DNA of 64,000 nt from Candidatus Yanofskybacteria bacterium RIFCSPHIGHO2_01_FULL_41_21 (GCA_001794025.1 MGJA01000003.1:76909-140908), one strand, 5' to 3'; shown: positions 1,624 to 61,815, counted from the first letter of the stretch. A program made the numbers and translations. The notes: generated by a model from the sequence alone, not told the origin.

Positions 1624-3309
1624 TTGATTCTCATGGTATTTATTAAGAAAAATATCGGCTATCTTATAGCCCTCTTTGGATTAGGATTTTTTCTTTACGC
1701 TTTTAATCTTCACGGCCCGCTTTTTTGGGATGATGCCGATTGGATTATTAATAATCCATACATTCACACACTAACGTGGGAAAATATTAAATTCATATTT
1801 ACTCACGATACGAATGCCGGCATTGGTCTTGTCTCAAATTATTATCGGCCATTTCTGTTCCTAACATTAATGGCTAATTATATTATTTCTGGATCAGAGT
1901 CGGTCTTATACCATCTGGTAAATAATATCATCCATATCGGGAACGGTATCCTTATCTTCTATCTTTTAAACCGATGGTTTAAACATCCACGAATTGCATT
2001 TCTATCTGCGTTGTTATTTGTTATTCATCCGTTACAAACCGAAGCAATAGTAATTGTTTCAGGAAGAGGAGACCCCTTGTCTGTTTTTTTAGTTTTGTTT
2101 GGAATAATTTCTTTTCTTGTACTTAAAGACAGGAATCGTTATTGGTTCGCATATGGTGTAGCAAGTATCGCCATGATCTTGGCGGTTTTAAGTAGGGAAG
2201 TCACAGTCCTATTTCCGGCTTATTTAGGGGTGGTTTTAATGGCGTTTGAAAATCAGGGCCGGTTTTTGGCTCGTTTTAAAAAATCATTTATTGCCGTGGT
2301 GCCATTTTTAGGTATTACGGTTGTATATGGCATTCTTCGTCTCACGGTTCTAAATTTTCAAAACACTCTTAATTTCTATCAACAGCAGAATATTTATAGT
2401 GAGAATTTGTTGTATCGTGTCTACACTTTCTTTCATGCTCTGGTTGTATATATTCGGTTAATTATTTGGCCAACGGGGCTACACATGGATAGAGATATTC
2501 CAGTCAGTACTCACATCTGGGACCCTTGGTCATGGCTGGGAGCATTGATAATTATCGGCTTGATTGTTTTGTTGATTTATTTATATCGTTCAGAAGTTAG
2601 TAAATTTAGAAATTCGAAATTAGAAATTAGTAATTATTCTTTCAATGTTTGGTTCTTCGGACTAGGAATATTTTTTGTGAATCTATTACCAACATCAGGA
2701 CTCATTCCAATAAATGCTCGTATCTATGAACATTGGCTTTATTTCTCGCTCTTTGGATTTTTTACAATTGCGGCTTTTTATCTGGACAAAATTCTTAGTT
2801 TTTTTAAAAATAAAGATTCTAAGTTCTACGTTCTAATTACTATTTCCTTCGTCATCTATTGTTTATTTCTTGGTGTTCAGACCATTCGTCGTAATTTACT
2901 CTGGAGTAATACAGAGAAATTTTATTTAAATATTCTTAAATATGAACCCGAGGATGTCCGGGTTATTAACAATTTAGGAAATTGGTACTCTGATCATGGA
3001 AATAATGATTTGGCAAAACCGCTTTATGAGCGAGCTATTGCCATTGATCCGAACCAACCCGCCCTGTATCATAACCTCGGAAATATTGCTCGTGATAGTG
3101 GTCAACTAGATCGGGCTGAAGAATTATACAAAAAAGCCATTTCTACCGATCCGACATTCCATTACGCTTATGGTAACCTCGCCCAGCTTTATCTTAATCA
3201 AAATAAAATAACTCAAGCATTAGAAATGCTTGAACAACTCCAAAAAATATATCCAACAATCCAAACCCAGCAAAATATAGAGATGTTACAGGGATTGGTT
3301 AATAAATAG
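1624..3309 (+). CDS. Polytopic membrane protein with C-terminal TPR repeats; TMTC/PMT_2 (DUF1736)-like putative protein O-mannosyl/glycosyltransferase
   Basis: Multiple predicted TM helices. C-terminal NLGNWYSDHGNNDLAKPLYERAIAIDPNQPALYHNLGN... are TPR units. Architecture matches the TMTC-like family. Confidence 0.6.
   Translation: MILMVFIKKNIGYLIALFGLGFFLYAFNLHGPLFWDDADWIINNPYIHTLTWENIKFIFTHDTNAGIGLVSNYYRPFLFLTLMANYIISGSESVLYHLVNNIIHIGNGILIFYLLNRWFKHPRIAFLSALLFVIHPLQTEAIVIVSGRGDPLSVFLVLFGIISFLVLKDRNRYWFAYGVASIAMILAVLSREVTVLFPAYLGVVLMAFENQGRFLARFKKSFIAVVPFLGITVVYGILRLTVLNFQNTLNFYQQQNIYSENLLYRVYTFFHALVVYIRLIIWPTGLHMDRDIPVSTHIWDPWSWLGALIIIGLIVLLIYLYRSEVSKFRNSKLEISNYSFNVWFFGLGIFFVNLLPTSGLIPINARIYEHWLYFSLFGFFTIAAFYLDKILSFFKNKDSKFYVLITISFVIYCLFLGVQTIRRNLLWSNTEKFYLNILKYEPEDVRVINNLGNWYSDHGNNDLAKPLYERAIAIDPNQPALYHNLGNIARDSGQLDRAEELYKKAISTDPTFHYAYGNLAQLYLNQNKITQALEMLEQLQKIYPTIQTQQNIEMLQGLVNK
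2598..2634 (+). repeat. Heptanucleotide tandem repeat (TAGAAAT-like, 4-5 units) inside the TMTC-like gene
   Basis: tagaaat tcgaaat tagaaat tagtaat. Confidence 0.75.
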
Positions 3310-3600
3310 ACACTCGTGAAGGTCATTACCATTCTCGACACGCCTCCGGCTCTCTCGGTCCTCTCCGAGCGACCTCATCGCCTCAGCTAAGCTCGCATTG
3401 CAGTTCGTTGGTTGATCGGCCTGCTGGCCATTAATTATATCAACCAACTCCTGCAACGTCTCGATTGTCTCGAATTGGCAATGACCATCACTCGTTTGGC
3501 TCTCTAGTTTTTAAGGATTTCCTTGTCTGTGGAGTGAGAAAAATAGTGAGGGCTTCGCTTTTGTTTAGATTTAAAAAATAAATAGGGACTGTAGCGACCG
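3301..3600 (+). repeat. GC-rich structured element A; inverted homolog of 61540-61815; putative ncRNA or structured 3'UTR element
   Basis: About 90% identical core (gcattgcagttcgttggttgatcggcctgctggccattaattatatcaaccaactcctgcaacgtctc) to the reverse complement of 61657-61735. Nested stems with compensatory changes. Starts at the stop codon of the upstream + gene. Confidence 0.6.
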
Positions 3601-3760
3601 ACACCCTAACCCCCAGCGAGAAGTCGCGCAGACCCCGAAGCTAGGATTATGTCGATGGGTGCGGAAGACATAATCCGAGGTGCTTGGTGAGGAACCGAGC
3701 GGTCTAGATAAAAACCTGCCGCTGGAACAGGTTTATTATCGGTCGAGTCGGGGGTTAGGG
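3595..3760. repeat. Long hairpin domain: 13-bp closing stem caccctaaccccc / gggggttagggtg enclosing ~125 nt with internal hairpin ggattatgtc...gacataatcc
   Basis: Perfect inverted repeats at 3596-3608 and 3741-3753. GC-rich relative to flanks. Sits in a 500-nt gap between convergent genes. Confidence 0.5.
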
Positions 3761-3812
3761 TGGAGGGAGCGAACTCCAAGAGGAAGCCATGAGGAAACCC
3801 CACAAAGAGCTA

Positions 3813-5324
3813 TTATTTTTGGATGAGGGGTAAATTTTGTTGGGTGCGACGGACGAAGATGACGACGGAGTCGTCCTGATAGACGAGGGGCCAATTTTTG
3901 TCTTGGGAGATGAAAGATAGGAATGTTTGGGCCCAAGGGGTGATGTCATGATAATCAAAAAAGACATAATTAATCTTGTATTGATCGGAATATTTTTTCC
4001 ACAATTCAGGTGATTGTTGCATTGGGATATAAATCTTTTGGAAAAAATCCACGGAATAGGCCTCGGGTCGGCCATCAACAAAAACTTTTTGATTTGGATA
4101 GAGTTTCCAAATCAAGTAACTACCGACGTCAAAGTTATTAAATACCGGCCCGGCGAGTTTATTATCTTTAACAAAATTGGCTCCACCTTCAGCACCAGCA
4201 GAGACCTCTAACCCAAAAATATCTCCGGAACCGGCCCACCTATAAAATTTATTATCAACTACAGCGTTTAGCGAAAATAAACAAATAGCGATAATTATAA
4301 CGTAAGTCCCCGCCTTAATTTTATAATTATTAAAAGTCGGGAATAGCCACGATTGAAGATTGAGGGCAAAGATAGGGATGAAAACAATTGCATATGGTCC
4401 AAGATTTCTAATCATATCAAAGCCCAAAATTGTGAAAGCCAAACCAGTACCAACTTCAAAAATATAACTCTTAAAACCGTGTCTTTTTAGAGCAGGAATA
4501 AAGCTTAACCAAAATAAAATAGTCGCTAAGATAAAAATATTAATTCTAGTAAGGAGAATGCCGTAATTTTTTATGAAAAGTATGGATTGGTTTTCCACAA
4601 TACTGTAGCCATAACTATTGAGAATATTAAAAGGCGTCAAAGCCCCATAAATACCGTTAGGATTTATTACGGTTGCTATCAAAGAAAAGCCGGTTATCTT
4701 CACGATTAAACGCCAATCGGGATCGCGATTTATCCAACGATCAATAGCGAATAACCCTAACAACATTGGCCCAAGAATAAAGTAGATATGCATATTGGTC
4801 CAAACTAATTGAACAAGAGGAGTCACATAGAGCCAAGTGTATTTTTGAGAATATTTTGCTTGAAAGATTGCGAATAAAAAATAGGCCAAGAAAAGGTAAC
4901 TGAATATTTCCGGCCGGACATCGGTGCGGTCTAACATAACCAACAATCCAACTAAGCCGGCAATGATAAATGGTAATGGCTCAATTTTTTTAGCCACAGA
5001 TCGCCACAAGAGCCAAAAAGTTGTGATTAAAATTCCGGCTTTAAATATAATTAGACCCTTTAATCCAATAAAGAGATTTAAAATATAAAAAACGACTTCA
5101 CTTAACCAATGATGGTTTATGAATGGAACATCTGGTTCGGTATATGAAAATAGGTTTGTTTCCGGAACATGTTTGGTCTCCAAGATAATTTTGCCAGTTT
5201 TAATGTGTCGACCAATGTCTTGATTAATAGAGCCAAGCGAATGAACAAAAACCGCACCTGCAAGTGCGAAAAATATTACCAAAGAAGTAAATTTAAAAAA
5301 TGTTGAGATTCTAATAGGACTCAT
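3813..5324 (-). CDS. Polytopic membrane protein with C-terminal extracytoplasmic domain; GT-C-like putative glycosyltransferase (function uncertain)
   Basis: ORF track. More than 10 hydrophobic segments followed by a soluble C-terminal region. Confidence 0.5.
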   Translation of the reverse strand: MSPIRISTFFKFTSLVIFFALAGAVFVHSLGSINQDIGRHIKTGKIILETKHVPETNLFSYTEPDVPFINHHWLSEVVFYILNLFIGLKGLIIFKAGILITTFWLLWRSVAKKIEPLPFIIAGLVGLLVMLDRTDVRPEIFSYLFLAYFLFAIFQAKYSQKYTWLYVTPLVQLVWTNMHIYFILGPMLLGLFAIDRWINRDPDWRLIVKITGFSLIATVINPNGIYGALTPFNILNSYGYSIVENQSILFIKNYGILLTRINIFILATILFWLSFIPALKRHGFKSYIFEVGTGLAFTILGFDMIRNLGPYAIVFIPIFALNLQSWLFPTFNNYKIKAGTYVIIIAICLFSLNAVVDNKFYRWAGSGDIFGLEVSAGAEGGANFVKDNKLAGPVFNNFDVGSYLIWKLYPNQKVFVDGRPEAYSVDFFQKIYIPMQQSPELWKKYSDQYKINYVFFDYHDITPWAQTFLSFISQDKNWPLVYQDDSVVIFVRRTQQNLPLIQK

Positions 5325-5348
5325 TTGAATTGATCTAATTAGGTCAAT

Positions 5349-6512
5349 TTATAGTAGTTTTTCTATTTTAAGAATAGTGACTTCAATATTAAAGGTGAAA
5401 AGAACACGTTGGTGGGCTTGAATTCCCATTTCATTAGCTCGTGATTCATTATCCAAGAACATAGTGACATGTTCTGAAATTTGATTTGAATTGCGAGGGT
5501 CAATAATATAGCCATTAACCCCATTTTCAATGATTTCGGGTATGGCGCCGACATTGGTGGCAATGATAGGTAATTTGGCCCCCATTGCCTCCAAAATGAC
5601 CCAAGGGAAGCCCTCTTTCACTGAAGGCAGGAGGAATACGTCAAAAGCGTTTAAATACCTTGAGGCCTGTTCTTTTCGGCCAACAAGTAATACTTTTTCG
5701 GTTAAACCATTTTCTTCTATCAGTTTATTAAGAGCATGACGTTCCGTACCGTCGCCGATAACACACCATACAACATCTTCACGATTAATTTTGGTTGCGG
5801 ATTCAATTAAATATTCCAATCCCTTGGTTGGGTAAAAATTTGCGATAGTGCCGATGATTTTTTTTGAATGCGGAAGACCTAATTGAGAACGGGCTTCATC
5901 TCTTTCCAGGAGATCTAGTTTGTATGGATCAAGACCATTATGAATTAAAACAATATCCTGACGGGGTTTAATGCCAATTTCTTTGGCCTTAATTAAATCA
6001 TAATTATTGTTAACGATAATAATATCTTTCCAAGATGCACTTATCTTTTCCAATGTTCTCCAAAGAGCTTTTTTCCAGGCCGGCCAAGGATCATTGAATG
6101 TCCAGCCCCCGATACGGTAGATGACCTTAGGTCGTAACTGTGACCACTGAGCCGCTAATGACCCAATAAACCCGGCTTTAGAACTTCCCAACAAAAGCGT
6201 GTCCGGTTTTAATTTTTGGATAAGTTTTTTTATTTGATCAACGGCCAGAATATCGTAAATTGGACTAATGTTTCGTTTCAACGCGGATAATACGAAAACC
6301 GGGACTCCCAGTTCTAATAGAGCTTGGGAGAATGAACCATCACCATCAGCACCGACCGCTACAGAAATATCATAGGCATCTTTTTTCGTGTGCCTGATAA
6401 ATTGAAGAATAAATTGCTGAGCACCACCAATTTCCGACTGGGTAATGATAAAGAGAACCTTCTTTTTAGGTGTTTGGCTGGCGCCACCAAAAGCATTGAT
6501 ACTAGTGTCCAT
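5349..6512 (-). CDS. Glycosyltransferase family 4 (GT-B)
   Basis: C-terminal EGFPWVILEAMGAKLPIIATNVGAIPEII (E-x7-E GT4 motif). Confidence 0.8.
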   Translation of the reverse strand: MDTSINAFGGASQTPKKKVLFIITQSEIGGAQQFILQFIRHTKKDAYDISVAVGADGDGSFSQALLELGVPVFVLSALKRNISPIYDILAVDQIKKLIQKLKPDTLLLGSSKAGFIGSLAAQWSQLRPKVIYRIGGWTFNDPWPAWKKALWRTLEKISASWKDIIIVNNNYDLIKAKEIGIKPRQDIVLIHNGLDPYKLDLLERDEARSQLGLPHSKKIIGTIANFYPTKGLEYLIESATKINREDVVWCVIGDGTERHALNKLIEENGLTEKVLLVGRKEQASRYLNAFDVFLLPSVKEGFPWVILEAMGAKLPIIATNVGAIPEIIENGVNGYIIDPRNSNQISEHVTMFLDNESRANEMGIQAHQRVLFTFNIEVTILKIEKLL

Positions 6513-6534
6513 TTATGGTAAAATATTAGCACAT

Positions 6535-7648
<1,114 letters not shown>

Positions 7649-7668
<20 letters not shown>

Positions 7669-8821
7669 TATTCTCATTGCGACCGGTATTTTTTCTCCAG
7701 ACATTGGTGGCCCAGCTTCATATGCTCAGACACTGGCCATGCGTTTGGCTGAATCAGAAAAAGTAACCATGGTCACCTATTCTTCTGTTTGGAGTTCGTC
7801 GGCTGATTTAAAGCTACCATTTCGGGTAGTAAGAATCTGGGCAAAATGGCCGAAGGGGATTAAACACGGAATATATTTTGTGAAGATGTTGCTGGAAGCA
7901 AGAAATTGTGGAGTTATATTTGCTTTGAATGCGGTGAGCGCGGGAATACCGGCCCGATTCGTGGCCCGTGTTTTTAAGCGAAAATTCATTGTAAAAATTG
8001 TCGGTGATTCCGCCTGGGAACGGGCGATTGGAAAAGGCAGGACCTCCCTACTTCTCAATGATTTTCAGAAAGTAAAACGTTCGGGTCGGGCGCGAATAAT
8101 GCACGCGCTTCAATTCTCAGTTTGCAAAGGCGCCCATATGATTATTGTTCCCTCGGAATATCTTAGAAATATTGTTGAAGGTTGGGGTATTTCAAAAGAA
8201 AAGATTAAAGTTGTTTATAATGGTTCTGATTTTAAGCCGTCTTTGTTATCTAAAGAAGAGTCCAAGAAAAAGCTGGGCATTACAGGAAACGTTTTATTTA
8301 CTTGGGGCCGGCTCGTGCCATGGAAAGGATTTAGAATGCTGATTAAAATAATGCCGAAGCTCGCTGAAATTAACCCATTTTTTAAGTTGGTTATTGTCGG
8401 TTCCGGTCCGGATAAATCTATCCTTGAGGCCATGATTAAAAACTTACGGCTTGAGCGAAAAGTTATCCTTGCTGGTCGAAAGAATCTGGAAGAAGTGGCC
8501 GAGTATTTAGCTACGGCTGACATGGCCGTTTTAAATAGTGGGTATGAGGGATTTTCTCACCAGCTTTTGGAGGCAATGATTGCCGGCGTGCCGTTGATTA
8601 CAACCAATGCCGGCGGGAATAGGGAGATAATCCACCAAGGCCAAAATGGAATTATGGTTAAATACAATGACGAGTTTAATTTGATTGAAGTGATTCGGGC
8701 AATTTGGAATAATCAGGAACTACAGGATCATTTTATAGCTGAAGGAAAGAAAACCGCATCCCATTTTAACGTTGAAAAAATGTTTAATGAGACATCTGCA
8801 TTATTAAAAACTCAGCTATGA
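7649..8821 (+). CDS. Glycosyltransferase family 4 (GT-B)
   Basis: GYEGFSHQLLEAMIAGVPLITTNAGGNREII. Start at Met 7649 (MKPLQNN...), overlapping the upstream stop. Confidence 0.8.
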
Positions 8822-9957
8822 GTAATCTTTTAATGATTTCAGGCGACCGTTCTTTAGCCGAAGGTAAACACGGCGCTTTTTATAACACTCTTGAAGAACT
8901 CCATAAACATTTTGAAAAAATAGATGTTATTTGTCCTAAAATTAGAAATTCGAAATTAGGAATTAGAAATTTCTTCGGTAACGTCGAAGTCCATCCTTCT
9001 CCATGGCCCTTAATATTACAGCCATTCTGGATTTATCGTCGAGGTCTTAAAATTTTGAAAGCTAATGGCTACTCGCTAATGACTAATAACTATCTTATGA
9101 CGGTCCACGACTATCCTCCGTTCTATAATGGATTTGGTGCATATTTATTATCTCTCGCGACTTGTGTGCCGTATATGTTGGAAATTATGCATATTCCCGG
9201 TTTGCCCAAAAGTGGGTCATCAAAAGAATTTATCTATAAATATTTAACCAAGTTTTTTATTCGTTTTGATGCGCATCGTGCCCGAGCGGTTCGAGTTATT
9301 AATCATAAACAGACCAAAGATTTTATAATTCAAGCCGGTGTGCCTGTTTCAAAAATAAAATATATTCCTGCTTTTTACATTAATCTTGATGTTTTTAAAC
9401 CAATCAGTTTGGAAAAAAAGTATGATTTAATTTTTGTCGGTCGCTTGGAATCCAACAAGGGCGTAGAGTTATTGTTTGAAGCAATAAAAAATCTCAAGCA
9501 CCAAATTCCAAATATCAAATGTCTGATTGTGGGAGAAGGTTCTCTTCTGAATCATTGTAAATTAGAAATTGTAAATTGGAAATTGCAGGACAACGTCCTG
9601 TTTAATGGTTTTGCAAAAGATTTTCTTGAAATAGCTCGTCTTATAAACGAATCAAAAGTATTGGTTATGCCATCGTATAATGAGGGCGGTCCGCGTGTAA
9701 TTTTAGAAGCGATGGCTTGTGGTGTCCCGGTTCTTGCTACACCGGTTGGAATTGTGTTAGATATAGTTAAAGATAAAGAGTCGGGTGTTATTATTGATTG
9801 GGATGGGGCCGATATCGCAAAAAAAATAAATATTTTGTTGAACGATAGGCAAATTTATAATAAATATCAGAGTGCCGGTTTGGAAATCGTTAAATTATTT
9901 GAACGTCAATCGGCAATTAAAAATTATGCCGAGAAGTTATCTTTATTAATAAAATGA
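8818..9957 (+). CDS. Glycosyltransferase family 4 (GT-B)
   Basis: PSYNEGGPRVILEAMACGVPVLATPVGIVLDIV. ATGA overlap with the upstream gene. Confidence 0.8.
   Translation: MSNLLMISGDRSLAEGKHGAFYNTLEELHKHFEKIDVICPKIRNSKLGIRNFFGNVEVHPSPWPLILQPFWIYRRGLKILKANGYSLMTNNYLMTVHDYPPFYNGFGAYLLSLATCVPYMLEIMHIPGLPKSGSSKEFIYKYLTKFFIRFDAHRARAVRVINHKQTKDFIIQAGVPVSKIKYIPAFYINLDVFKPISLEKKYDLIFVGRLESNKGVELLFEAIKNLKHQIPNIKCLIVGEGSLLNHCKLEIVNWKLQDNVLFNGFAKDFLEIARLINESKVLVMPSYNEGGPRVILEAMACGVPVLATPVGIVLDIVKDKESGVIIDWDGADIAKKINILLNDRQIYNKYQSAGLEIVKLFERQSAIKNYAEKLSLLIK
8941..8968 (+). repeat. Heptanucleotide tandem repeat (ATTAGAA-like)x4 inside GT4 coding sequence
   Basis: attagaa attcgaa attagga attagaa. Shares the identical 16-mer agaaattcgaaattag with 2607-2634. 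Confidence 0.8.
9559..9586 (+). repeat. Heptanucleotide tandem repeat (AAATTNN)x4 inside the same GT4 gene
   Basis: aaattag aaattgt aaattgg aaattgc. Confidence 0.75.
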
Positions 9958-10457: not shown

Positions 10458-11681
10458 GACCTTAACCTTTGGCACCGGAATGATAAATTTTCCACCCTGC
10501 TTTCTATAGACATCCTCTTTCTTTAAAATTGCGTCCGAATAGTTCCAGGCCAAAAGAACTGTGTAGTCAGGTCGATTTTCTTTAAAATGTTCAGGGGGAT
10601 GAACAGGAATATGTCCGCCGGGTGTGTAGAGTCCTTGTTTAAATATCGTCGTATCCACCAAATAATCTACGGTCTTGTGATTAATTTTGCAGAAATTAAG
10701 AAGGGTATTCCCTTTAGCTGGAGCACCGTATCCGGCAATAGTTTTGCCTTGGCGTTTCAAATTTAATAATAATGAACGAAGGTCTTCCTGATTCTTTTTG
10801 ACCCTTAAAGCAAAGTTCTTATAGGTTGAAAGTTTTTCTAAACCGAGTTTGTACTCTCTGTTTAGAAGTGTTTGGACCGATTGTTGGACTGTTCGTGATG
10901 CGGATATAAATACTCGTAGAGTTGCTCCATGCATACTTGTAATTTGGGCATCAAAAATATTTAGTCCAAATTGTTCTGCAAGATGTTGTAATGAACGAAG
11001 GGAGTAATAGCATAAATGTTCGTGATAAATTTGATCAAAACCACCCTCATAAATCAGATTTCCAACCCAGTGGACTTCCATCACAAATACACCATTCTTT
11101 CCTATAATATGCTTAGCGCCACGAAATACATCATGCATATCATCAATATGAGCAAAGACATTGCTACCCGTCAGTATCGTCGCTGTCCCACGTTCGGCGA
11201 CAATCTTTTTCGCTAGTTCTTCGGAAAAAAATTCGGTGATAGTCGGGATTCCTTTAATCTGGGAAATCTGGGCTATATTTTTAGCCGGTTCTATATTGAG
11301 CACCCGGCATTTATTCTGGATGATTGATAAAAGAGGTCCGTCATTGCCACCGACTTCAACTACTAAATCATTCTTTGACTTAATAAATCTCCGAATTAAT
11401 TCTTCTCCGTATTCTCTAAAATAATCCACCAACGGCTTAGAAGCCGAAGTCATGTAGACATAGTGCCGAAATAAATATTTTGAATCTACCCGATCGCGGA
11501 GTTGGACAAGGGTACAGGAAGGACAAAAATACAAACGTAATGGGAATACTGCTTCCTGTTTAGGTATCTCCTCTTTTCCTAAGAATGAATTTGCCGGTGG
11601 CATAATGCCCAAGTCCAAAATTTTTATCATTTTAGAACTTCCACAAATCCGACATTGATTTTTATGAGTATAGCGTTTCAT
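10452..11681 (-). CDS. NDP-hexose C-methyltransferase (TylCIII/NovU family: Zn-ribbon + SAM-MT + C-methyltransferase C-terminal domain)
   Basis: N-terminal CRICGSS...CPSC zinc ribbon, SAM-binding VVEVGGNDG, C-terminal domain. The track ORF start (11735) is an artefactual extension into the 110-nt repeat; the true ATG 11679-11681 abuts the repeat. Confidence 0.8.
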   Translation of the reverse strand: MKRYTHKNQCRICGSSKMIKILDLGIMPPANSFLGKEEIPKQEAVFPLRLYFCPSCTLVQLRDRVDSKYLFRHYVYMTSASKPLVDYFREYGEELIRRFIKSKNDLVVEVGGNDGPLLSIIQNKCRVLNIEPAKNIAQISQIKGIPTITEFFSEELAKKIVAERGTATILTGSNVFAHIDDMHDVFRGAKHIIGKNGVFVMEVHWVGNLIYEGGFDQIYHEHLCYYSLRSLQHLAEQFGLNIFDAQITSMHGATLRVFISASRTVQQSVQTLLNREYKLGLEKLSTYKNFALRVKKNQEDLRSLLLNLKRQGKTIAGYGAPAKGNTLLNFCKINHKTVDYLVDTTIFKQGLYTPGGHIPVHPPEHFKENRPDYTVLLAWNYSDAILKKEDVYRKQGGKFIIPVPKVKVL

Positions 11682-11791
11682 CCCGTTAGAGATGTAACAG
11701 ACCGTCCACCGTCTTGAGGTGGTGGCTAGTTGCAATCATTTTTATATTATTGATTCTCATATTTATACCCGTAGGGTTCATCTCTAACGGG
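11682..11791 (-). repeat. 110-nt TIR element copy 1 (inverted relative to copies 2-5); carries mini-ORF 11686-11781 (-)
   Basis: cccgttagagatg ... catctctaacggg; ends exactly at the ATG of the C-methyltransferase gene. Both stem arms carry a compensatory A>G / T>C change. Confidence 0.9.
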
Positions 11792-11796
11792 ATTCA

Positions 11797-12621
11797 TTAC
11801 CATTCAGTATCAAGGTATTCTTTCAATGCATCTTGCCAGGGTCTTAGAAGGGTAGGATGGGGTTCCAGACCTTCATGAAGGCGATCGGCCGAGAGGCCGA
11901 AAGTTGTTGCTGGAACTGGTTTTACAATAGATTTTGAACCAATGATTTTGACTATTTCGTTGACCTCTTGGAAACGGGAACATACACCGGTATTCACAAT
12001 ATGAAATATACCCGTCGTTTCATTTGATAATATTTCCCGAATACCCGCGACTAGGTCCTTGCCATATGTAGGCGACCCAAAATGATCTTCAGTCGCTTGT
12101 ATTTCTGGTGTTCCCTGGGCTACTTTTTCCATTATTTTGCCGACAAGCTTCTTATCTTTACCACGTCCGCCACCAAATATCCAGCAGGTCCTAACGATGG
12201 CATAATTTTCCAATATTCCTCTGATCGAAAGTTCGCCAAGATATTTGGAACGACCGTATACATTTTGAGGATTGGGAGTGTCGGAAATTTTATACGATTC
12301 AGATTGTAACCCATCAAAAACAGAATTCGTAGAAATATATATCAGTTTTGCTCCAATCTCACGGGCTGCTAAGGCAATGTAATAAGTCCCAATAAAGTTT
12401 ACCCGATAAGCATAGTCGGGGTTTTCTTCACATTGCTTCAAGTCAGTGGCACCGGCAAGATGGATAATGGTTCTAGGTTTATATTTAGTTATAGTTTCAA
12501 ATACAGCTTTTTCATCCGTAATATCAAGCTGGTCATGAGTAAGCCGGATTCCGAAATCAATATAAGAACCAATCATTCCACCGGCTCCGGTAATTAAAGT
12601 TTTAGAAAAATCATCTTTCAT
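11797..12621 (-). CDS. rmlD: dTDP-4-dehydrorhamnose reductase-like (RmlD family NAD(P)-dependent reductase)
   Basis: TGAGGMIGS ... LDITD ... IIHLAGATD ... STNSVFDG pattern typical of RmlD. Confidence 0.65.
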   Translation of the reverse strand: MKDDFSKTLITGAGGMIGSYIDFGIRLTHDQLDITDEKAVFETITKYKPRTIIHLAGATDLKQCEENPDYAYRVNFIGTYYIALAAREIGAKLIYISTNSVFDGLQSESYKISDTPNPQNVYGRSKYLGELSIRGILENYAIVRTCWIFGGGRGKDKKLVGKIMEKVAQGTPEIQATEDHFGSPTYGKDLVAGIREILSNETTGIFHIVNTGVCSRFQEVNEIVKIIGSKSIVKPVPATTFGLSADRLHEGLEPHPTLLRPWQDALKEYLDTEW

Positions 12622-24293: not shown

Positions 24294-25082
24294 TTGTTTC
24301 CAATGAACAAAGAAGAAATAAAAACAATAATGGATGTTGAGGGCTACACTTCTTTGAAAGAGGGTTTGTTTTTATATTCTCTGGCGGGCACTCTTATAAA
24401 TTCTCCGGTTATGGTTGAAATTGGAAGCTGGAAGGGGCGTTCCACAATTTGGTTAGCCAGTGGTTTGAGAGACGGCACTGGCAGTGGCCGAGTTGTGGCC
24501 GTAGATCATGGTGTTGGTGATTCGGATGCCGGTATTCAGCAGACAGCGGAAATTTTTTCTGCCAATATAAAAAAAAGTAATGTCGCTGAAATGATAACCA
24601 CAATTTTTAAGAAATCCGAAGAAGCTATTAGTAACTGGTCAGATCCTGTTGATATGCTTTTTATTGATGGGGCTCATGATTACGAAAATGTAAAAAGAGA
24701 TTTTGCGTGGGAGGAGTTCTTAAAAGATGGTGGTTGGTTGGTTATGCACGATGTTCTTAATCCTGCGGAAGGACCCGCACGTATGTTTTTGGAAAGGGTT
24801 ATCAAAACAAACGGTTTTAAAAATTTTGGCACCGTTGATTCAATTCTTTTTGCCCAAAAAGGAGAAGGACTTAAACGGTATGATTTAAGAAAAACAATTA
24901 TTGGGATACTCTTGAGATTTTGTCTTATTTTAACCAAAGTCAATAAAAAACTTCCCAAAAATGGTTTACCTAAAAAAATTGTAAGGATTTTAATGAAGGA
25001 TATTGTTAGGGGTTTAATTACTAAGGTCGCAAATTTTAAACTTGTCGGTTTTGATAAAATAAAGACCGAATTAACGCAATGA
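24294..25082 (+). CDS. Class I SAM-dependent methyltransferase (Methyltransf_24-like O-methyltransferase)
   Basis: MVEIGSWKGRST ... LFIDGAHDYENV ... GGWLVMHDV. Confidence 0.65.
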   Translation: MFPMNKEEIKTIMDVEGYTSLKEGLFLYSLAGTLINSPVMVEIGSWKGRSTIWLASGLRDGTGSGRVVAVDHGVGDSDAGIQQTAEIFSANIKKSNVAEMITTIFKKSEEAISNWSDPVDMLFIDGAHDYENVKRDFAWEEFLKDGGWLVMHDVLNPAEGPARMFLERVIKTNGFKNFGTVDSILFAQKGEGLKRYDLRKTIIGILLRFCLILTKVNKKLPKNGLPKKIVRILMKDIVRGLITKVANFKLVGFDKIKTELTQ

Positions 25083-25084
25083 GT

Positions 25085-25194
25085 CCCGTTAGAAATGAAC
25101 CCTACGGGTATAAATATGAAAATCAATAATATAAAAATGATTGTAACCAGCCACCACCTCAAGACGGTGGACGGTCTGTTACATTTCTAACGGG
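25085..25194 (+). repeat. 110-nt TIR element copy 2; mini-ORF 25095-25190
   Basis: cccgttagaaatg ... catttctaacggg; immediately followed by ATG 25195. Confidence 0.9.
25095..25190 (+). CDS. Conserved 31-codon mini-ORF inside the repeat (MNPTGINMKINNIKMIVTSHHLKTVDGLLHF); TAA 4 nt before the downstream ATG
   Basis: Intact, same length and frame in all 5 repeat copies. Could be a leader peptide or a coincidence of a structured element. Confidence 0.3.
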   Translation: MNPTGINMKINNIKMIVTSHHLKTVDGLLHF

Positions 25195-26226
25195 ATGAAG
25201 ATATTATATATTTCTCCACACGGTGATTTTACCGACCAGATGAAGAGGGTTTTTATTGAAAATGGTGTAGAGATTATTTATATTGATGATAGAAAGAATT
25301 ATTTTATGCCGTGGTTATTGAGAGGGTCTTTAATTTGGAAGATAACTAGACGGATAAATTTCATAAGAAGAAAAAGTAATGAAATTCTAAATGAAAAAGC
25401 GATAGAATTATGCCGGAAACATCACCCAGATTTTTTGTTTACAGGGAAAGGGATGAACATAAAGGTCTCAACTGTTTTAAAAATTAAAAGCATGGGCATA
25501 AAAACGGTAACTTGGTTTATGGAAAATACCTATCAGGAAAGGTATTTTAATTGGTTTTCTAATAATTATCTAAATTATGATTACGTATTTACCAATGATT
25601 CATATTTGTTTGATAAATTTTTTAATAAATCCTCTGCAAAACTGTGTAATATTTCAATGACCATTGACCCCGATTGTTATAAGGAACAAACTTTAAACAA
25701 AGAAGAGGCAGAAAAATATTCCTGTGATGTTTGTTTTGTGGGTGCATTTGATCAAAACAGAGAAAGAATTCTTAGTAAGGTAAACGAGATAAAAGGACTT
25801 AATCTAAAAATTTTTGGCTGGGTCGGCTGGAAAAACTCTTCTTTAGCGTCTTTATACCACGGTCCCCTTAATCTTGAACAAATGGCTAAACTTTACAGGT
25901 CTGCTAAAATTTGTCTCAATATAAATGGTCGAAATAAAAGTACTGATCCAGTAATGAATGGTGTTAGTTTAAAGACCTTTGAGATTCCGGCTTCAAATGG
26001 GTTTCAAATATCTGATTATCGTAAAGACGTAGAGGATCTTTTTAAAATAGGAGAAGAAATTGAAATATTCAGAAGTGATGATGAGTTGATTGATAAGATT
26101 AAATTTTATTTAAATAATGAAGAGGCCAGAAATAAAATTGCTGAAGCCGGCCACAAAAGAGTTTTAACGAGTCATACTCTTGATAAGCGGGTCAAAGATA
26201 TATTGAATTTTATTCAGACCAATTGA
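25195..26226 (+). CDS. CgeB-like / DUF3880 glycosyltransferase-family protein
   Basis: C-terminal half resembles CgeB-type glycosyltransferase-like domain (FEIPASNGFQISDY...). Confidence 0.45.
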   Translation: MKILYISPHGDFTDQMKRVFIENGVEIIYIDDRKNYFMPWLLRGSLIWKITRRINFIRRKSNEILNEKAIELCRKHHPDFLFTGKGMNIKVSTVLKIKSMGIKTVTWFMENTYQERYFNWFSNNYLNYDYVFTNDSYLFDKFFNKSSAKLCNISMTIDPDCYKEQTLNKEEAEKYSCDVCFVGAFDQNRERILSKVNEIKGLNLKIFGWVGWKNSSLASLYHGPLNLEQMAKLYRSAKICLNINGRNKSTDPVMNGVSLKTFEIPASNGFQISDYRKDVEDLFKIGEEIEIFRSDDELIDKIKFYLNNEEARNKIAEAGHKRVLTSHTLDKRVKDILNFIQTN

Positions 26227-26232
26227 ATGAAT

Positions 26233-26342
26233 CCCGTTAGAAATGAACCCTACGGGTATATGTATGAAAATCAATAATATAAAAATGATTGCAACTGGCC
26301 ACCATCTCAAGACGGTGGATGATCAGTTACATCTCTAACGGG
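26233..26342 (+). repeat. 110-nt TIR element copy 3; mini-ORF 26243-26338
   Basis: Same element; followed by ATG 26343. Confidence 0.9.
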
Positions 26343-27368
26343 ATGAACAACAAAGTAAAAATCGGAATTTTGGGATGTGCGGATATTGCCAAGAGATATG
26401 CAATTAAAGCATTCCAATCAATAGATAATTGCGAAGTCGTCAGTATCGCCAGTCGTAATCCCGTAAAGGCCAAAGAATGGGCGTTGGATTTTAATATACA
26501 AGCGGAAGAATCATACGATTCTTTGTTGAACAATAAAGACATAGATGCGGTCTATATACCCCTACCGGTGGGATTACATAAAGAATGGGCCCTCAAAGCA
26601 GTTGCGGTCGGCAAACATATTATCTGCGAGAAATCTTTGGCTGAGGATTTTGAATCCGTAAAAAGTATAGTGTCTGCTTGCCAATCTAAAGGAGTAGTTT
26701 TGTACGAGAATTTTATGACCGATTTTCATCCTCAACATCAAAAAGTATTATCTATTATTGAGAATGGGGATATTGGCGAGCCATTTATATTTAGAAGTTT
26801 TTTTGGTTTTCCTCCACTAAAAAAGGACAACATTAGATACGACAGTAAACTTGGCGGGGGTTGCCTTAATGATGTCGGTGCGCATATCGTCTTTATGGCG
26901 CGGAAGATTTTTAAAAAAGAACCCGTTTCGGTTATGTGTAATTTGATAAACGACAAAAAGCTTGGCGTTGATACGGGAGGTACAGCGGTGCTTGAATTTT
27001 CAGATGGCCAAGCAGCGTTAATGGGCTTTAGTTTTTGTTCATCCTATCAAAATAATTATTCTGTGTGGGGGAGCAAGGCCGTGCTTAATGTGAAACAGGC
27101 CTATTCTATAAGGCCAGACACGAAACCAATCGTTGAGCTTACTCAAATTCAGAACTACCAGGAGGTAGTAACCCAAATCAACGCACCTTCAGCCAACCAG
27201 TTTGAAATACTTTTTCATGATTTTTGCGATACTATCTTAAATCAGGAAAACAGGGCTGAAAAAATTAATAATATCTATTTACGTCTTCTGGCTCAAGCCA
27301 AGGTTTTAGAAGCCATGCGCCTGTCCGCTTTGGAGAATAGAATGGTTGAGGTTAAGGAAATTAAATGA
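26343..27368 (+). CDS. Gfo/Idh/MocA-family NAD(P)-dependent oxidoreductase (putative NDP-sugar keto-reductase/dehydrogenase)
   Basis: KIGILGCADIAKRYAIKAF Rossmann N-terminus. The track ORF (26289, TTG) is an artefactual extension into the repeat. Confidence 0.75.
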   Translation: MNNKVKIGILGCADIAKRYAIKAFQSIDNCEVVSIASRNPVKAKEWALDFNIQAEESYDSLLNNKDIDAVYIPLPVGLHKEWALKAVAVGKHIICEKSLAEDFESVKSIVSACQSKGVVLYENFMTDFHPQHQKVLSIIENGDIGEPFIFRSFFGFPPLKKDNIRYDSKLGGGCLNDVGAHIVFMARKIFKKEPVSVMCNLINDKKLGVDTGGTAVLEFSDGQAALMGFSFCSSYQNNYSVWGSKAVLNVKQAYSIRPDTKPIVELTQIQNYQEVVTQINAPSANQFEILFHDFCDTILNQENRAEKINNIYLRLLAQAKVLEAMRLSALENRMVEVKEIK

Positions 27369-32752: not shown

Positions 32753-32759
32753 AATAAGT

Positions 32760-32869
32760 CCCGTTAGAAATGAACCCTACGGGTATAAATATGAAAATCA
32801 ATAATATAAAAATGATTGTAACCAGCCACCACCCCAAGACGGTGGATGGTCTGTTACATTTCTAACGGG
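32760..32869 (+). repeat. 110-nt TIR element copy 4; mini-ORF 32770-32865
   Basis: Same element; followed by ATG 32870. Confidence 0.9.
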
Positions 32870-33604
32870 ATGAACTCTAAAGAAACAAATAAAACTCCAG
32901 AGTTATCTATAGTGGTTTTGTGTTACCGAAGCGGTAAAACAATAATTCCTTTCTTGGAAAAAATGAAACAAGAATTTAAAGAAGGAGAGATGGATGATTA
33001 CGAGTTGGTTTTGGTAGGAAATTATTTTCCCGGGACCGACGATACAACCCCGAACGTGGTTAGGGAATTGGCAAGAAATAATCCCAAAATAGTGTCCGTG
33101 ACATTAGAGAAAAAAGGAATGATGGGTTGGGACACCATTAGTGGATTGAATGCCGCCAGTGGGCGTGCGATTGGTTTTATTGATGGCGATGGACAGATGC
33201 CCTCGCGGGATATCGTGCGGCTCTATAAGGTTTTAAAAAGCGGTGAGTTTGACTTGGTAAAGACATTTCGTAAAACACGTATGGACAGCGCTTATCGGAA
33301 GTTTATCTCCGGTTGTTATAATCTGATATTCCATATACTTTTCCCAAGTGCGACATTTAGAGATGTGAATGCTAAACCAAAATTAATGACCATGGAGGCC
33401 TATAAGAAGATGAAGCTTTCCTGTGACGGTTGGCTGATTGACGCGGAAATAATGTTAGAGTCAATGCGTCTGGACTTGAATGTGGCCGAAGTGCCTACCG
33501 TTTTTTATAAAAACGAATGGCGGGGAAGTTTTGTAAAGATTTGGACAATTTTTGAATTTTTAATTAATTTAGTTGTTTATAGGTTTAAGTACTGGTTTAA
33601 ATAA
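32870..33604 (+). CDS. GT2 glycosyltransferase (Dpm1-like polyprenyl-phosphate sugar synthase type)
   Basis: LSIVVLCYRSGKTI ... GFIDGDGQMP. The track ORF 32846 extends into the repeat. Confidence 0.7.
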   Translation: MNSKETNKTPELSIVVLCYRSGKTIIPFLEKMKQEFKEGEMDDYELVLVGNYFPGTDDTTPNVVRELARNNPKIVSVTLEKKGMMGWDTISGLNAASGRAIGFIDGDGQMPSRDIVRLYKVLKSGEFDLVKTFRKTRMDSAYRKFISGCYNLIFHILFPSATFRDVNAKPKLMTMEAYKKMKLSCDGWLIDAEIMLESMRLDLNVAEVPTVFYKNEWRGSFVKIWTIFEFLINLVVYRFKYWFK

Positions 33605-47406: not shown

Positions 47407-48141
47407 ATGGCAAAAAAAATAAGACAACGTATTGTCAATTTTTTTATAGATATCTTAAGTAAACCCTCAATTAGATATCGGTTCCTGTTGCCTTTGTCCA
47501 CGCTAATTTCAAAAAATCCTGATGAAGAGATATTGGAAAAGGCAATGAAATTTGCGGCTCATGTCGGTATAGGTGGGGATTATCTGGAATTTGGTGTTTG
47601 GAAAGGGCGCTCATTTGCTCGGGCGTATCATATGAGAAAATATATTAAAGACGCCAAACTTAACGGTATGAAATTTTATGCCTTTGACTCGTTTCAGGGT
47701 TTACCCGAAATAAAAAATGAACATGACACCAGTTCTTCCGAATTTAAAAAAGGTGATTACGCCTGCGACATAGGAACATTTAGACATAATCTTATCAATA
47801 AAGGTGTTGATCTTAAGGAGGTAACAATTATTCCCGGCTGGTACGAAGAAACTTTGAATGAAGAGACCAAAAATAAGTTGTCTCTTAAAAAAGCGTCAAT
47901 TATTTTTGTTGATTGCGATATTTATGAGTCAGCCGTTTCTGTTCTTAATTTTATAACCGATTATGTGGTAAATGGTACAATTATCATTTTTGATGATTGG
48001 TTTGCTTTCAGTGGCGACCCCGAAAAAGGTGAACAACGGGCTTTTAAAGAATGGTTGGAACGCAATCCAAATATCAAGGCCGTTGAATGGCAAAGAGTAA
48101 ATTGGAAAAGCAATTCGTTTATCTTAAACAAATCCCGTTAG
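47407..48141 (+). CDS. TylF/MycF-family sugar O-methyltransferase
   Basis: GDYLEFGVWKGRS ... IFVDCDIYES ... GTIIIFDDW. Its stop codon TAG lies inside the 5' TIR of repeat copy 5. Confidence 0.75.
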   Translation: MAKKIRQRIVNFFIDILSKPSIRYRFLLPLSTLISKNPDEEILEKAMKFAAHVGIGGDYLEFGVWKGRSFARAYHMRKYIKDAKLNGMKFYAFDSFQGLPEIKNEHDTSSSEFKKGDYACDIGTFRHNLINKGVDLKEVTIIPGWYEETLNEETKNKLSLKKASIIFVDCDIYESAVSVLNFITDYVVNGTIIIFDDWFAFSGDPEKGEQRAFKEWLERNPNIKAVEWQRVNWKSNSFILNKSR

Positions 48142-48243
48142 AAATGAACCCTATGGGTATAATAATGAAAATCAATAATATAAAACTGATTGTAACTAGC
48201 CACCACTCCAATATGGTGGACGGTTTGTCACATTTCTAACGGG
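48134..48243 (+). repeat. 110-nt TIR element copy 5; mini-ORF 48144-48239
   Basis: Most diverged copy but same length, TIRs and ORF frame; followed by ATG 48244. Confidence 0.9.
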
Positions 48244-49617
48244 ATGGATAGGCCAACCATATTTTTATCAAATTTTCATCCGTTTGTAACCAAGAATACT
48301 TTAAATTCCGGTGTTTTGGATGCCTTAGCTTCTCAATCTAAGGTTATTATTTTAGTTAGTAAAGAAAAGGAAGAATATTTTAAACAAATCTATGAAAAAG
48401 AAAATATTATTGTTGAGGGGATTAATTTAGACCCGTATATTAAAAGCGGTAAGAATAAAATTTTCATTCGTTTATCGGAATTACTGTTGGATACAAACGT
48501 GACCAGATTCCATCAGATGGAAGCATGCGTAAAAGACGGCAATTGGTTTAAATATTATTTCTTTCGGGCTTTCACAAGGACCTTGAGTCATTTTTTATTA
48601 TTTAAAAAATTAGTCCACGTGCTTGACTTTAAGATTGATAACCCAAAACCTTTCCAAAACATTTTTGAACATTACAAACCGCTGGCGGTTTTTGCGACCG
48701 ATGCTTTCGGGGATCACGATGTTTTTTTACTGAAAAATTCCAAATCTGCCGGAATAAAAACTATAGCTATGGTCCGTTCATGGGATAATACGACATGCCG
48801 TGGCTATCTGCGTTTCGTACCGGATAAACTTATAGTTCATAATGAGGTTATGAAAGCAGAGATGGTTAAATATCACGATATTGATATAGACACTATCAAT
48901 CTTAGTGGTGTGCCTCAATTTGAAAAATATATAGGTCTGAAAGCAAGTCCTAGAGATGAATTTTTTAATAGGATTGGAGCTAATCCGAATAAGCGTATGA
49001 TTTTATTTACGCCGGCCGGACAGTTTTTTATAGATTCCGACTGGCAGATATGCCAAATTCTTAAAGAACTTTATCTTGAGGAAAAGATTCCTCAAGATGT
49101 TCAATTTGTCGTGCGATTGCACCCATTTTTGCCAGTAGATTTATTAAGTTTTGAACCGGATGAAAATTTTATTATTGATGTGCCCGGTCCGGCAAAATTC
49201 AATAAACTGGAGAAAGACAAAAAAGAAGGTGAATTAGACACATTTTTCTTTCAACATATTTATGATTCTATCTATCATGCCTCGCTTGTCATCAATACAA
49301 TATCGTCAATTATTATTGATACGGCTATTTTTGATAAACCATTGATTACGATTAATTTTGACGGTTGGTTAAAAGACCCGCCCTTGCTGAGGAGTATATT
49401 GAAGCGTTGGCGGTTTGAGGAAAACCAGATTAATTGGATGAGTATCGGTTCTACGCGTCTGGCCGGAAGCAAAGAGGAATTGGCGAAATGGATTAATGAG
49501 TATCTTGAGCATCCGGAAATTGATCATGATAAAAGAGAAATTTTCAAACAGAAATACTGTTGGAAATATGACGGGAAATCGGCGGAAAGAATTGCCTCAA
49601 TTGTTCTGAGTAACTAA
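48244..49617 (+). CDS. Polysaccharide/teichoic-acid-type biosynthesis protein (TagB/TagF- or capsule-synthesis-like GT-B), uncertain
   Basis: Weak resemblance (MILFTPAGQFF ... VRLHPF). Confidence 0.35.
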   Translation: MDRPTIFLSNFHPFVTKNTLNSGVLDALASQSKVIILVSKEKEEYFKQIYEKENIIVEGINLDPYIKSGKNKIFIRLSELLLDTNVTRFHQMEACVKDGNWFKYYFFRAFTRTLSHFLLFKKLVHVLDFKIDNPKPFQNIFEHYKPLAVFATDAFGDHDVFLLKNSKSAGIKTIAMVRSWDNTTCRGYLRFVPDKLIVHNEVMKAEMVKYHDIDIDTINLSGVPQFEKYIGLKASPRDEFFNRIGANPNKRMILFTPAGQFFIDSDWQICQILKELYLEEKIPQDVQFVVRLHPFLPVDLLSFEPDENFIIDVPGPAKFNKLEKDKKEGELDTFFFQHIYDSIYHASLVINTISSIIIDTAIFDKPLITINFDGWLKDPPLLRSILKRWRFEENQINWMSIGSTRLAGSKEELAKWINEYLEHPEIDHDKREIFKQKYCWKYDGKSAERIASIVLSN

Positions 49618-61539: not shown

Positions 61540-61815
61540 AACGCTCAGAAATGGAAAGGACTTTGCTCTTTTTTAAAACAAGCGAGGCCATAATTATTTA
61601 CTCACATCTGCACGATTGGTAAAAATGCTAAGCGAGTTGAGTTGAAAGCCATCAGAGACAATTGAGACGTTGCAGGAGTTGGTTGATATAATTAACGGTC
61701 AGCAGACCGATCAACCAACGAACTGCAATGCGAGTTTAGCTGAGGTGACGAAGGTAGCCCGAAGGGTACCGAGGATCCGGAGGCGTGTCGGTTGATGGCT
61801 TTCAACTCAACGAGC
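61540..61815 (-). repeat. GC-rich structured element B; inverted homolog of element A (3301-3600); putative ncRNA or structured 3'UTR element
   Basis: Core ~90% identical to the reverse complement of element A. 18-bp perfect closing stem gttgagttgaaagccatc / gatggctttcaactcaac. Abuts the stop codon of the - strand gene 61819-63129. Confidence 0.6.

Follow-up and report, generated by a model that had tools for sequence, protein, structure and literature searches.

A 64,000-nucleotide (nt) stretch of the genome of a Candidatus Yanofskybacteria bacterium from the Rifle aquifer, a member of the Parcubacteria lineage of the Candidate Phyla Radiation (CPR), carries short tandem arrays of heptanucleotides inside three genes, one for a multi-pass membrane protein and two for GT4 glycosyltransferases (GT4#1 and GT4#2). 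Our results show that these arrays are a feature of the DNA and that their periodicity is not derived from the encoded proteins. In related genomes the runs occur at constant protein positions with units that are specific to each lineage, and this sequence comparison points to concerted evolution at the DNA level. In the strain studied here the arrays look fixed in length, and they do not look like a demonstrably working ON/OFF switch. On balance we lean towards the explanation that they belong to a genome-specific family of short coding heptanucleotide microsatellites, which would occupy conserved 'slots' in the glycan-synthesis genes of CPR bacteria and which are fixed here with a latent instability.

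Results

Three genes carry in-frame heptanucleotide arrays

We refer to the whole 64,000-nt stretch as the window. Four heptanucleotide loci had been claimed in a preliminary description of it, and both a reading of the sequence and Tandem Repeats Finder (TRF) located every one of them within a few bases of where it had been placed (sites A to D, Table 1). At site C, where (ATTNGAA)x4 had been proposed, the array is real but one of its units is off-pattern. The only perfect run among the four strong tracts is site B, and the three others are degenerate. We scanned the window for lag identity at periods 4-15 with a lag-score threshold of ≥9 and took the expectation from block shuffles. Five period-7 runs were found versus 0.15 expected, the fifth being site A2. 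Periods 4-6, 8 and 10-13 gave 0-1 runs each versus 0.15-0.65 expected, and period 9 gave two versus 0.25. Two more weak runs, site C2 and a site just before a strand of GT4#2, appear when the lag-score threshold is lowered, and in the remaining 54 kb of the window the scan found no period-7 run at threshold.

Every run in the window lies inside an open reading frame (ORF) and is read through in frame. The tracts fall at codons ~41, 86, 228 and 247 of GT4#2, ~186 of GT4#1, and ~325 and 400 of the membrane protein. All of the arrays are at most 1-2 mismatches away from a single unit, T-R-GAAA-Y, on either strand, and neighbouring arrays are in direct orientation, not inverted. The peptide of site A, SKFRNSKLEISNY, lies in a loop flanked by two hydrophobic segments of the membrane protein, and site B encodes FPVSSFQFPV in the interdomain linker of GT4#1, directly after the IPNGVD motif. 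Site C encodes KIRNSKLGIRNF, and site D encodes HCKLEIVNWKL, which corresponds to helix 244-253 after the GxG motif. In an AlphaFold2 model of the 379-amino-acid GT4#2 (predicted local distance difference test, pLDDT, 91), site C forms the surface hairpin loop that connects strands 34-39 and 50-52, the least confident part of the model, and site D is a well-predicted helix.

Table 1. Genes, heptanucleotide arrays, site C alleles of relatives and interspersed repeat. Positions are those of the window unless a locus (L) is named.
Feature	Position	Strand	Description	Source
Host gene 1	1624-3309	+	Multi-pass membrane protein with C-terminal TPR repeats ('TMTC-like' in the preliminary description)	NCBI OGM98160
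Host gene 2 (GT4#1)	6535-7668	+	GT4 glycosyltransferase, 377 amino acids	OGM98163, Pfam
Host gene 3 (GT4#2)	8818-9957	+	GT4 glycosyltransferase, 379 amino acids	OGM98165, Pfam
Site A	2592-2636	+	Period 7, unit AGAAATT, 6.1 copies, 80% matches, 10% indels (one indel)	Tandem Repeats Finder
Site A2	2817-2835	+	Weak array, TTCTAAG x2.9, reverse complement of AGAACTT	
Site B	7091-7121	+	AGTTTCC x4.4, 100% matches, reverse complement GGAAACT	Tandem Repeats Finder
Site C	8939-8971	+	AAATTAG x4.7, 84% matches	Tandem Repeats Finder
Site C2	9076-9092	+	Weak array, CTAATGA x2.4, peptide LMTNNY	
Pre-strand site	9501-9520	+	Weak array, CAAATNN x3, just before the KCLIVG strand of GT4#2	
Site D	9554-9585	+	NAAATTN, period 7 x4.6 or period 14 x2.3 at 94% matches	Tandem Repeats Finder
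16-mer AGAAATTCGAAATTAG	2608-2623 and 8944-8959	+	Exactly two copies	
41-nt unit alleles	L116/L117 1619-1700; L113/L114 1342-1382		Two copies in L116/L117 versus one copy in L113/L114	
17-nt unit alleles	L119/L120 ~1680-1725		L119/L120 versus L118	
122-nt interspersed repeat	11677-11798; 25078-25199, 26226-26347, 32753-32874, 48127-48248	- (first copy); + (other four)	Five copies	

The Pfam matches of the membrane protein are confined to TPR families and span residues ~438-560. GT4#1 has a longer ORF from an alternative start at 6445. An identical copy of the 379-amino-acid GT4#2 is present on 17 contigs of Rifle aquifer metagenomes, and NCBI annotates it as Candidatus Yanofskybacteria.

The periodicity arises at the DNA level

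Two sets of sequences were compared with the window. The first comprises 80 loci (1.34 Mb in total), with one genome per species, from metagenome-assembled genomes labelled Yanofskybacteria, Paceibacteria, Parcubacteria, Peregrinibacteria, Peribacteria or, in many cases, 'uncultured Candidatus Saccharibacteria'. The second represents the same strain and comprises nine loci from independent assemblies that are 99.9-100% identical to the window and available as consensus sequences only.

We held the peptides fixed, redrew their codons from local usage, and compared the lag-7 identity of the resampled and the actual sequences. Over 110 arrays the identity exceeded what the peptide requires by a mean z of 3.6. 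For the window sites p was 0.0005-0.02, with p = 0.003 at site A and p = 0.0015 at site A2. This synonymous resampling rules out a peptide-driven periodicity, with an ascertainment caveat that is taken up in the Discussion.

The orthologs show the same from another side. At site B, an ortholog at 69% protein identity carries a perfect array of the window's own unit, (CAGTTTC)4.7 in L095; an ortholog at 67% identity carries a perfect (CAATTTT)4.4 (L096); and an ortholog at 84% identity has alternating units (L094). The ortholog reported as closest (82% protein identity) has a GC-rich palindrome there instead, a GC hairpin seen in L010 and L093. At site D, the arrays of the window and L010 are equally long. 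They differ at seven of 28 bases, every difference falling on one of the two positions at which the unit varies, and the array of L010 is perfectly homogenised as (AAAATTC)4. Thus the sequence of the unit changes between lineages in all copies at once. Peptides conserved without nucleotide periodicity, one of the outcomes that would have spoken against the preliminary interpretation, were clearly not observed, and the orthologs keep the 7-nt period. The preliminary description had proposed that a repeat had spread here and that the protein sequence was not what was conserved; its DNA-level origin is borne out by orthologs that have the same sites and different units.

Units are also shared more often within a genome than between genomes, with 6.1% of within-genome pairs being identical versus 1.7% of between-genome pairs (permutation p ~0.002). 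In L076 and in L081, one unit recurs at 3-4 sites, each in a separate gene of the genome concerned.

Arrays recur at conserved positions in related genomes

Three ortholog loci contain two, four and six period-7 runs versus ≤0.05 expected, at the window's sites and with other units. In all 80 loci of relatives we counted 143 period-7 runs versus 0.33 expected, and periods 3, 6, 9 and 12 gave 8, 17, 19 and 9 runs. TRF reported 358 arrays in these loci, 132 with period 7 (median 4.6 copies), 59 with period 14 and 12 with period 21. At least one run is present in 49 of the 80 loci (~60%), some of which carry 6-8, and none in the other 31. This unevenness suggests a factor that acts on whole genomes. 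The length of the runs peaks at 30-35 nt (~32), within genes and between genes alike. Per 10 kb there are 1.76 runs in GT4 genes and 0.21 in other genes, and DNA outside ORFs has 3.4. Adjacent arrays are inverted in 13 cases and direct in four, with eight ties.

Within GT4 proteins, runs recur in several paralogous families at the N-terminal loop (site C), at residue ~95 (site C2), in the interdomain linker after IPNGVD (site B), in the segment before the KxLIVG strand and in the helix after GxG (site D). At site C, a peptide of 7-amino-acid periodicity and variable length is present in nearly all of 60 orthologs. The weak sites of the window are occupied more strongly elsewhere: site C2 by a strong array in L046 and a 5-copy CAATTNN array in L124, and the pre-strand site by strong arrays in L013, L038, L031, L034, L052 and L064 as well as in paralogous GT4 families. 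In the TPR membrane protein, the runs of relatives lie at residues ~338 (site A; L015 and L019) and 401-411 (site A2; strong arrays in L018, L019 and L034).

Several further structures were noticed in the relatives. Heptamer arrays often form inverted pairs 10-70 nt apart, with potential hairpin arms of ~30 nt, as in L081 (7297-7441 and 13933-13998), L076 (12674-12742) and L086 (11149-11205); the loci with such pairs are labelled Peregrinibacteria or Peribacteria, except that L086 is labelled only 'Patescibacteria group'. The GC-rich palindrome at site B, CCGCCAACTGGCGG, has heptamer remnants on either side in L010 (~3480-3530), and the same is seen in L093. GC-rich palindromes occupy array sites in some relatives (proteins P0016, P0028, P0030, P0034, P0041 and P0053), and, at the peptide level, the 'PRGSTSGGFEVEPL' class found at site C resembles the translation of a hairpin. 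In L025 (5257-7440), two GT4 genes that are separate neighbours in most genomes form one ORF of 727 amino acids, and L018 has a 6-copy heptamer run (12326-12367) exactly at the junction of the same two genes. In L013, L020, L023, L024 and ~25 other loci the match spans ~1.6 kb instead of 1.1 kb, probably by joining a match to the C-terminal domain of an upstream paralogous GT4.

Stop codons constrain the arrays and probably account for the shared 16-mer

An identical 16-mer had been said to occur in the membrane-protein gene and in a GT4 gene, and we found it at both sites, starting at 2608 and 8944. When up to two mismatches were allowed, three matches were obtained versus 0.26 expected. The 16-mer is (AGAAATT)2.3 with TAG changed to TCG at the position of an in-frame stop. 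An array of at least three units is read in all three phases of its unit, because 7 and 3 share no factor. Perfect (AGAAATT)n carries TAG in every frame and would read R-N-stop-K-L-E-I; it cannot stay perfect inside a gene, because the stop triplet falls in frame, and three of the four window tracts are therefore necessarily degenerate. The in-frame TAGs have been replaced by TCG and TAT at site A and by TCG and TTC at site C. The GTTTCCA unit is free of stop triplets in any phase of the coding strand, and (GTTTCCA)n is the only perfect array in the window because units that contain a stop need stop-killing substitutions.

The shared 16-mer therefore represents the same unit with the same stop-killing substitution, in the only possible reading. 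Eight sense codons lie one step from TAG, and the TCG that both copies have in common reflects either chance (about 1 in 8) or exchange between the two sites. The 16-mer, from which a spreading module had been proposed, is by itself no evidence of transposition, being the same unit with the same change from TAG to TCG. The relatives obey the same rule. In their 80 genomes, perfect arrays make up 28 of the 70 in-frame arrays with a stop-free unit and 3 of the 40 whose unit contains a stop, and orthologs have S, Y, W or L at the stop position, all of them encoded by a codon one step from TAG.

Array length looks fixed in this strain and reading frame is mostly kept in relatives

The preliminary description had seen in the arrays a classic mechanism of phase variation. 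Its arithmetic is right, as adding or removing a single 7-nt unit would put the gene out of frame. Phase variation itself is not supported for the window loci, where the tracts are short and mostly degenerate, the copy number is invariant and no OFF products were found. At the level of assemblies, array lengths were identical throughout the strain (n = 4 for sites A and A2, n = 7 for site B, n = 9 for sites C and D). One assembly alone departs from the others, with a change of GTTTCCA to GATTCCA in the perfect run, which is a point substitution and not slippage. When proteins were clustered at 90%, the clusters of the three host genes held no length variants beyond start-site calls. We also predicted eight products of OFF alleles, from changes of ±1 and ±2 units at site B, from site C, from ±1 unit at site D and from loss of one unit at site A, and an exact look-up found none of the eight among ~15 billion proteins. 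A metagenome scan with GT4#1 yielded further orthologs and no identical population contigs. A 36-nt 'insertion' in L007 at window position 7706, considered as a repeat variant, proved to be an N-filled scaffold gap.

Of the 143 heptamer runs in relatives, 113 are spanned in frame, 28 have no homolog or are intergenic, and two were candidates for frameshifts. The run of L018 at the junction of two GT4 genes was rejected as an OFF allele, as it lies between the two adjacent genes that are fused in L025. Frameshifted heptamer alleles thus amount to at most one of ~114 gene-borne arrays in these 80 consensus genomes.

Length changes and frame loss were found at site C of certain relatives. In one 90% protein cluster (P0067), site C contains 4, 5 or 7 heptads (TMNHEPR), encoded by heptamer arrays of ~12, 16 and 21 units. 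Its strains, at ≥90% protein identity, differ by in-frame steps of 21 nt, and it is the only cluster of relatives that reaches 12-21 units. In another aquifer Yanofskybacteria, contigs are 100% identical over 3.9 kb of sequence, the sole exception being a 41-nt unit at site C. Two copies of this unit give an intact gene (24 contigs), and one copy gives a gene split into ORFs of 60 and 288 amino acids (16 contigs), which is a natural ON/OFF-type polymorphism. In a Paceibacterota population, one contig has lost a 17-nt unit (TCCAACAAGCGAAGCGA) at site C, which frameshifts its orthologous GT4 gene, and at least 24 contigs are intact. Repeat-mediated loss of frame at site C of this orthogroup does segregate in nature. 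It was not seen with short heptamer arrays, nor in the window's strain.

Divergent gene segments begin and end at array sites

The window and its closest relative L010 are 90-100% identical except for blocks of 49-73% identity at 7080-7380, 9000-9180 and 9450-9630, and each of these blocks has array sites at its limits. At site B the match of L094 is to the window (87%); over the next 240 nt it is to L010 (80-97%), and the window is 60-65% identical to both. The block at 9440-9640 is most similar to L022 (83%), the protein of which is 57% identical overall. Protein P0017, 58% identical overall, is 100% identical to the window protein through residue 53. P0017 is encoded by L124, whose DNA shows 96-98% identity up to and including site C, and the similarity collapses at C2, at the 5-copy array of L124. 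These patterns of identity suggest that gene segments have been exchanged with junctions at arrays.

Other repeats in the window

The five copies of a 122-nt interspersed repeat (Table 1) are 88-98% identical and lie between, or abut, genes of the glycan region. The repeat has 15-nt terminal inverted repeats (ATCCCGTTAGAAATG ... CATTTCTAACGGGAT) and an inner GC hairpin, and one copy is altered on both sides of the terminal stem (GAGATG ... CATCTC). It has no match in Rfam and could be an element resembling a miniature inverted-repeat transposable element, or a structured RNA. Positions 401-520, within an ORF of 239 amino acids (260-979) whose only Pfam match is a weak PARP-like one, contain a 54-nt (also 30/24-nt) tandem repeat that encodes a low-complexity segment rich in Pro, Thr and Asp. 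There is also a duplication of ~0.7 kb with 75-86% identity between copies 2.7 kb apart (49652-50341 and 52335-53018), and an inverted pair of 97 nt with 93% identity and a distance of 58 kb (3375-3471 and 61655-61751).

Discussion

The comparative data favour a picture in which the arrays would be coding microsatellites that evolve concertedly under a filter of selection, with a possible role as recombination junctions. In the explanation towards which we lean, slipped-strand or out-of-register template-switch events would both give rise to the arrays and homogenise them. Three units add up to 21 nt, or 7 codons, and only arrays that preserve the frame would survive. Units that contain a stop would have to take stop-killing substitutions, which would produce the shared 16-mer and leave (GTTTCCA)n as the sole perfect run. 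The encoded peptides would be tolerated as a surface loop, a linker or an amphipathic helix. Array sites would retain a latent instability, visible in relatives as sites that change in length, occasionally lose frame and coincide with the boundaries of segments that appear to have been exchanged.

Four points weigh against this explanation. If simple slippage were at work, short arrays should be numerous and lengths widely spread, and what is observed is a peak at 30-35 nt, within genes and between them. The positions are conserved across paralogs of 25-30% identity, which is hard to reconcile with neutral microsatellites. The synonymous-site test was applied to arrays that had been selected for their periodicity, and this ascertainment bias overstates its significance. 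Finally, the data are at the level of consensus sequences, and low-frequency length variants may exist in this population.

Other explanations read the same arrays differently. It is conceivable, though we judge it unlikely, that they are contingency loci, selected since gain or loss of units reversibly switches single glycosyltransferases and generates combinatorial variation of surface glycans, for example against phages or in attachment to hosts. The unit length that is not divisible by 3 and the location inside glycan genes agree with this, as do the 8-fold enrichment in GT4 genes over other genes, which resembles known phase-variable bacteria, and the many perfect arrays of relatives. Homogenisation at constant length would be easiest if an array passed through +1/-1 states; co-occurring aquifer CPR bacteria segregate the 41-nt and 17-nt frameshift alleles in the same orthogroup and at the same site; and a switch made of coding heptanucleotides is already known from NeuO. 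However, each window tract has just 4-5 copies and all but one of the four are degenerate, 4-9 consensus assemblies of near-identical strains showed no length variant, and no predicted OFF product was present among the 15 billion proteins. Classical contingency loci are often OFF in sequenced genomes, whereas at most one of the ~114 gene-borne arrays is out of frame here, and the copy number is nearly constant across lineages. We give somewhat less credence to the idea that the arrays serve as recombination joints, in which periodic tracts of ~30 nt, shared by different GT4 genes or alleles at matching places, would promote the exchange of segments, or be its scars, and so give rise to mosaic glycosyltransferases. 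Divergent blocks between the window and L010 that start or end at array sites fit this idea, as do the switch of L094 from a window-like site B to an L010-like sequence directly downstream, the nearness of block 9440-9640 to L022, the collapse of similarity to L124 at the C2 array, and the recurrence of one unit at different sites and genes of a genome. These are a handful of cases, though, with boundaries read from identity comparison, and an identical pattern would result if arrays and crossovers were both merely tolerated in surface loops. Arrays also occur between genes, and genes that would need to pair usually have different units.

The preference for ~32 nt in both coding and non-coding DNA would also be expected of cis-acting DNA or RNA elements, such as sites for a periodic binder or hairpin arms, in which length and periodicity outweigh sequence. 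The excess of inverted over direct adjacent arrays (13 versus 4) and some long perfect inverted pairs, such as that at 7297-7441 in L081, point the same way. Against such elements stand units that are extremely diverse, even within one gene, and the direct orientation of neighbouring arrays in the window; a scan of the window against Rfam gave no match and no candidate binder was found. We consider this explanation very improbable. One particular form of it, a HutP- or TRAP-like binder of UAG-N4 repeats, was dropped, as the units differ widely between sites and lineages. Chance, codon bias or faulty assembly is effectively refuted as a source of the arrays. The genome is AT-rich, and peptides rich in K, N, I, L and F do favour AAA, AAT, ATT and TTA words. 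Yet the shuffles rule out chance or composition for the window (5 versus 0.15) and the relatives (143 versus 0.33) alike, other periods stay at background, synonymous resampling fails to reproduce the periodicity, and an assembly artefact is ruled out by identical sequence in independent assemblies from different groups and assemblers.

A wider proposal joins some of these elements. The arrays may be an architecture found throughout the CPR lineage, with genome-specific units that an active process at the DNA level keeps periodic and with arrays of ~30 nt in conserved slots of genes for glycosyltransferases and other envelope proteins, and joints for segment exchange together with occasional frameshift switches might make up a dedicated system for diversifying surface glycans. 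We regard this as possible but rather doubtful. If true, it would offer a concrete, testable handle on how CPR bacteria diversify their surface glycans. These bacteria live attached to other cells, and their surface glycans probably play a central part in recognising hosts and evading phages. Standard predictors based on repeats would call the three genes phase-variable, and the comparative data make that inference unsafe here. The excess of period 7 over periods 3, 6 and 9 in coding DNA and the preference for ~32 nt point to a mutational or selective process that is unexplained.

Comparison with known systems

In the literature that we searched, we found no account of heptanucleotide repeats, phase variation or simple sequence repeats in CPR/Patescibacteria, and the searches returned only NeuO and classical pathogens. 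The wider array feature is undescribed as far as these searches found. The closest known case is the poly-psi variable number tandem repeat of NeuO, the polysialate O-acetyltransferase of prophage CUS-3 in E. coli K1, which consists of the coding heptanucleotide AAGACTC (PMC3046976). Three of its units encode one heptad, RLKTQDS, and full-length protein is made only at in-frame copy numbers (PMC3046976). The copy number is changed by slipped-strand mispairing (PMC3046976), and switching has been demonstrated. NeuO has a single tract that lies two nucleotides after the start codon, ranges from 2 to 93 perfect copies and encodes a dispensable N-terminal extension. The window arrays resemble it in their heptanucleotide unit, in three units making one heptad and in the link to glycan genes, and heptad steps like those of NeuO were seen in the P0067 cluster of relatives. 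Unlike NeuO, the window tracts are internal, several to a gene, and one of them encodes a core helix; none forms an N-terminal extension. They have 4-6 copies, are mostly degenerate, showed no variation in this strain and belong to proteins of the GT4 fold. Their positions are conserved across paralogs and phyla, and their copy number is nearly invariant.

Contingency loci in the glycosyltransferase genes of Haemophilus, Neisseria, Campylobacter and Pasteurella consist of homopolymer or tetranucleotide tracts, the copy number of which varies between strains, and OFF alleles are frequent; gain or loss of repeats is the mechanism expected to turn these genes ON and OFF. The window arrays share with them a unit length that is not divisible by three and a location inside three ORFs, in surface-glycan genes. 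They differ in a near-constant copy number, in positional conservation across paralogs and phyla, and in the near absence of heptamer OFF alleles.

Two other families of repeats invite comparison. The short tandemly repeated repetitive (STRR) heptanucleotides of heterocystous cyanobacteria, reportedly described by Mazel et al. in 1990, are said to form genome-specific short tandem arrays at many loci, mainly between genes. The arrays studied here are likewise genome-specific families of heptanucleotides in short dispersed arrays, with greater sharing of units within a genome, but their hosts are CPR bacteria, 113 of 143 runs are in frame inside genes and the protein positions are conserved. 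The Rickettsia palindromic elements, on which Ogata et al. are said to have reported in 2000, reportedly are 100-150 base pairs long, have a conserved family sequence and are inserted in frame at surface-exposed protein positions. As with those elements, repetitive DNA is tolerated in ORFs here and adds a peptide without destroying the fold. The arrays differ from them in being direct tandem repeats of ~30 nt with dozens of different units, although GC-rich palindromes do stand at array sites in some relatives.

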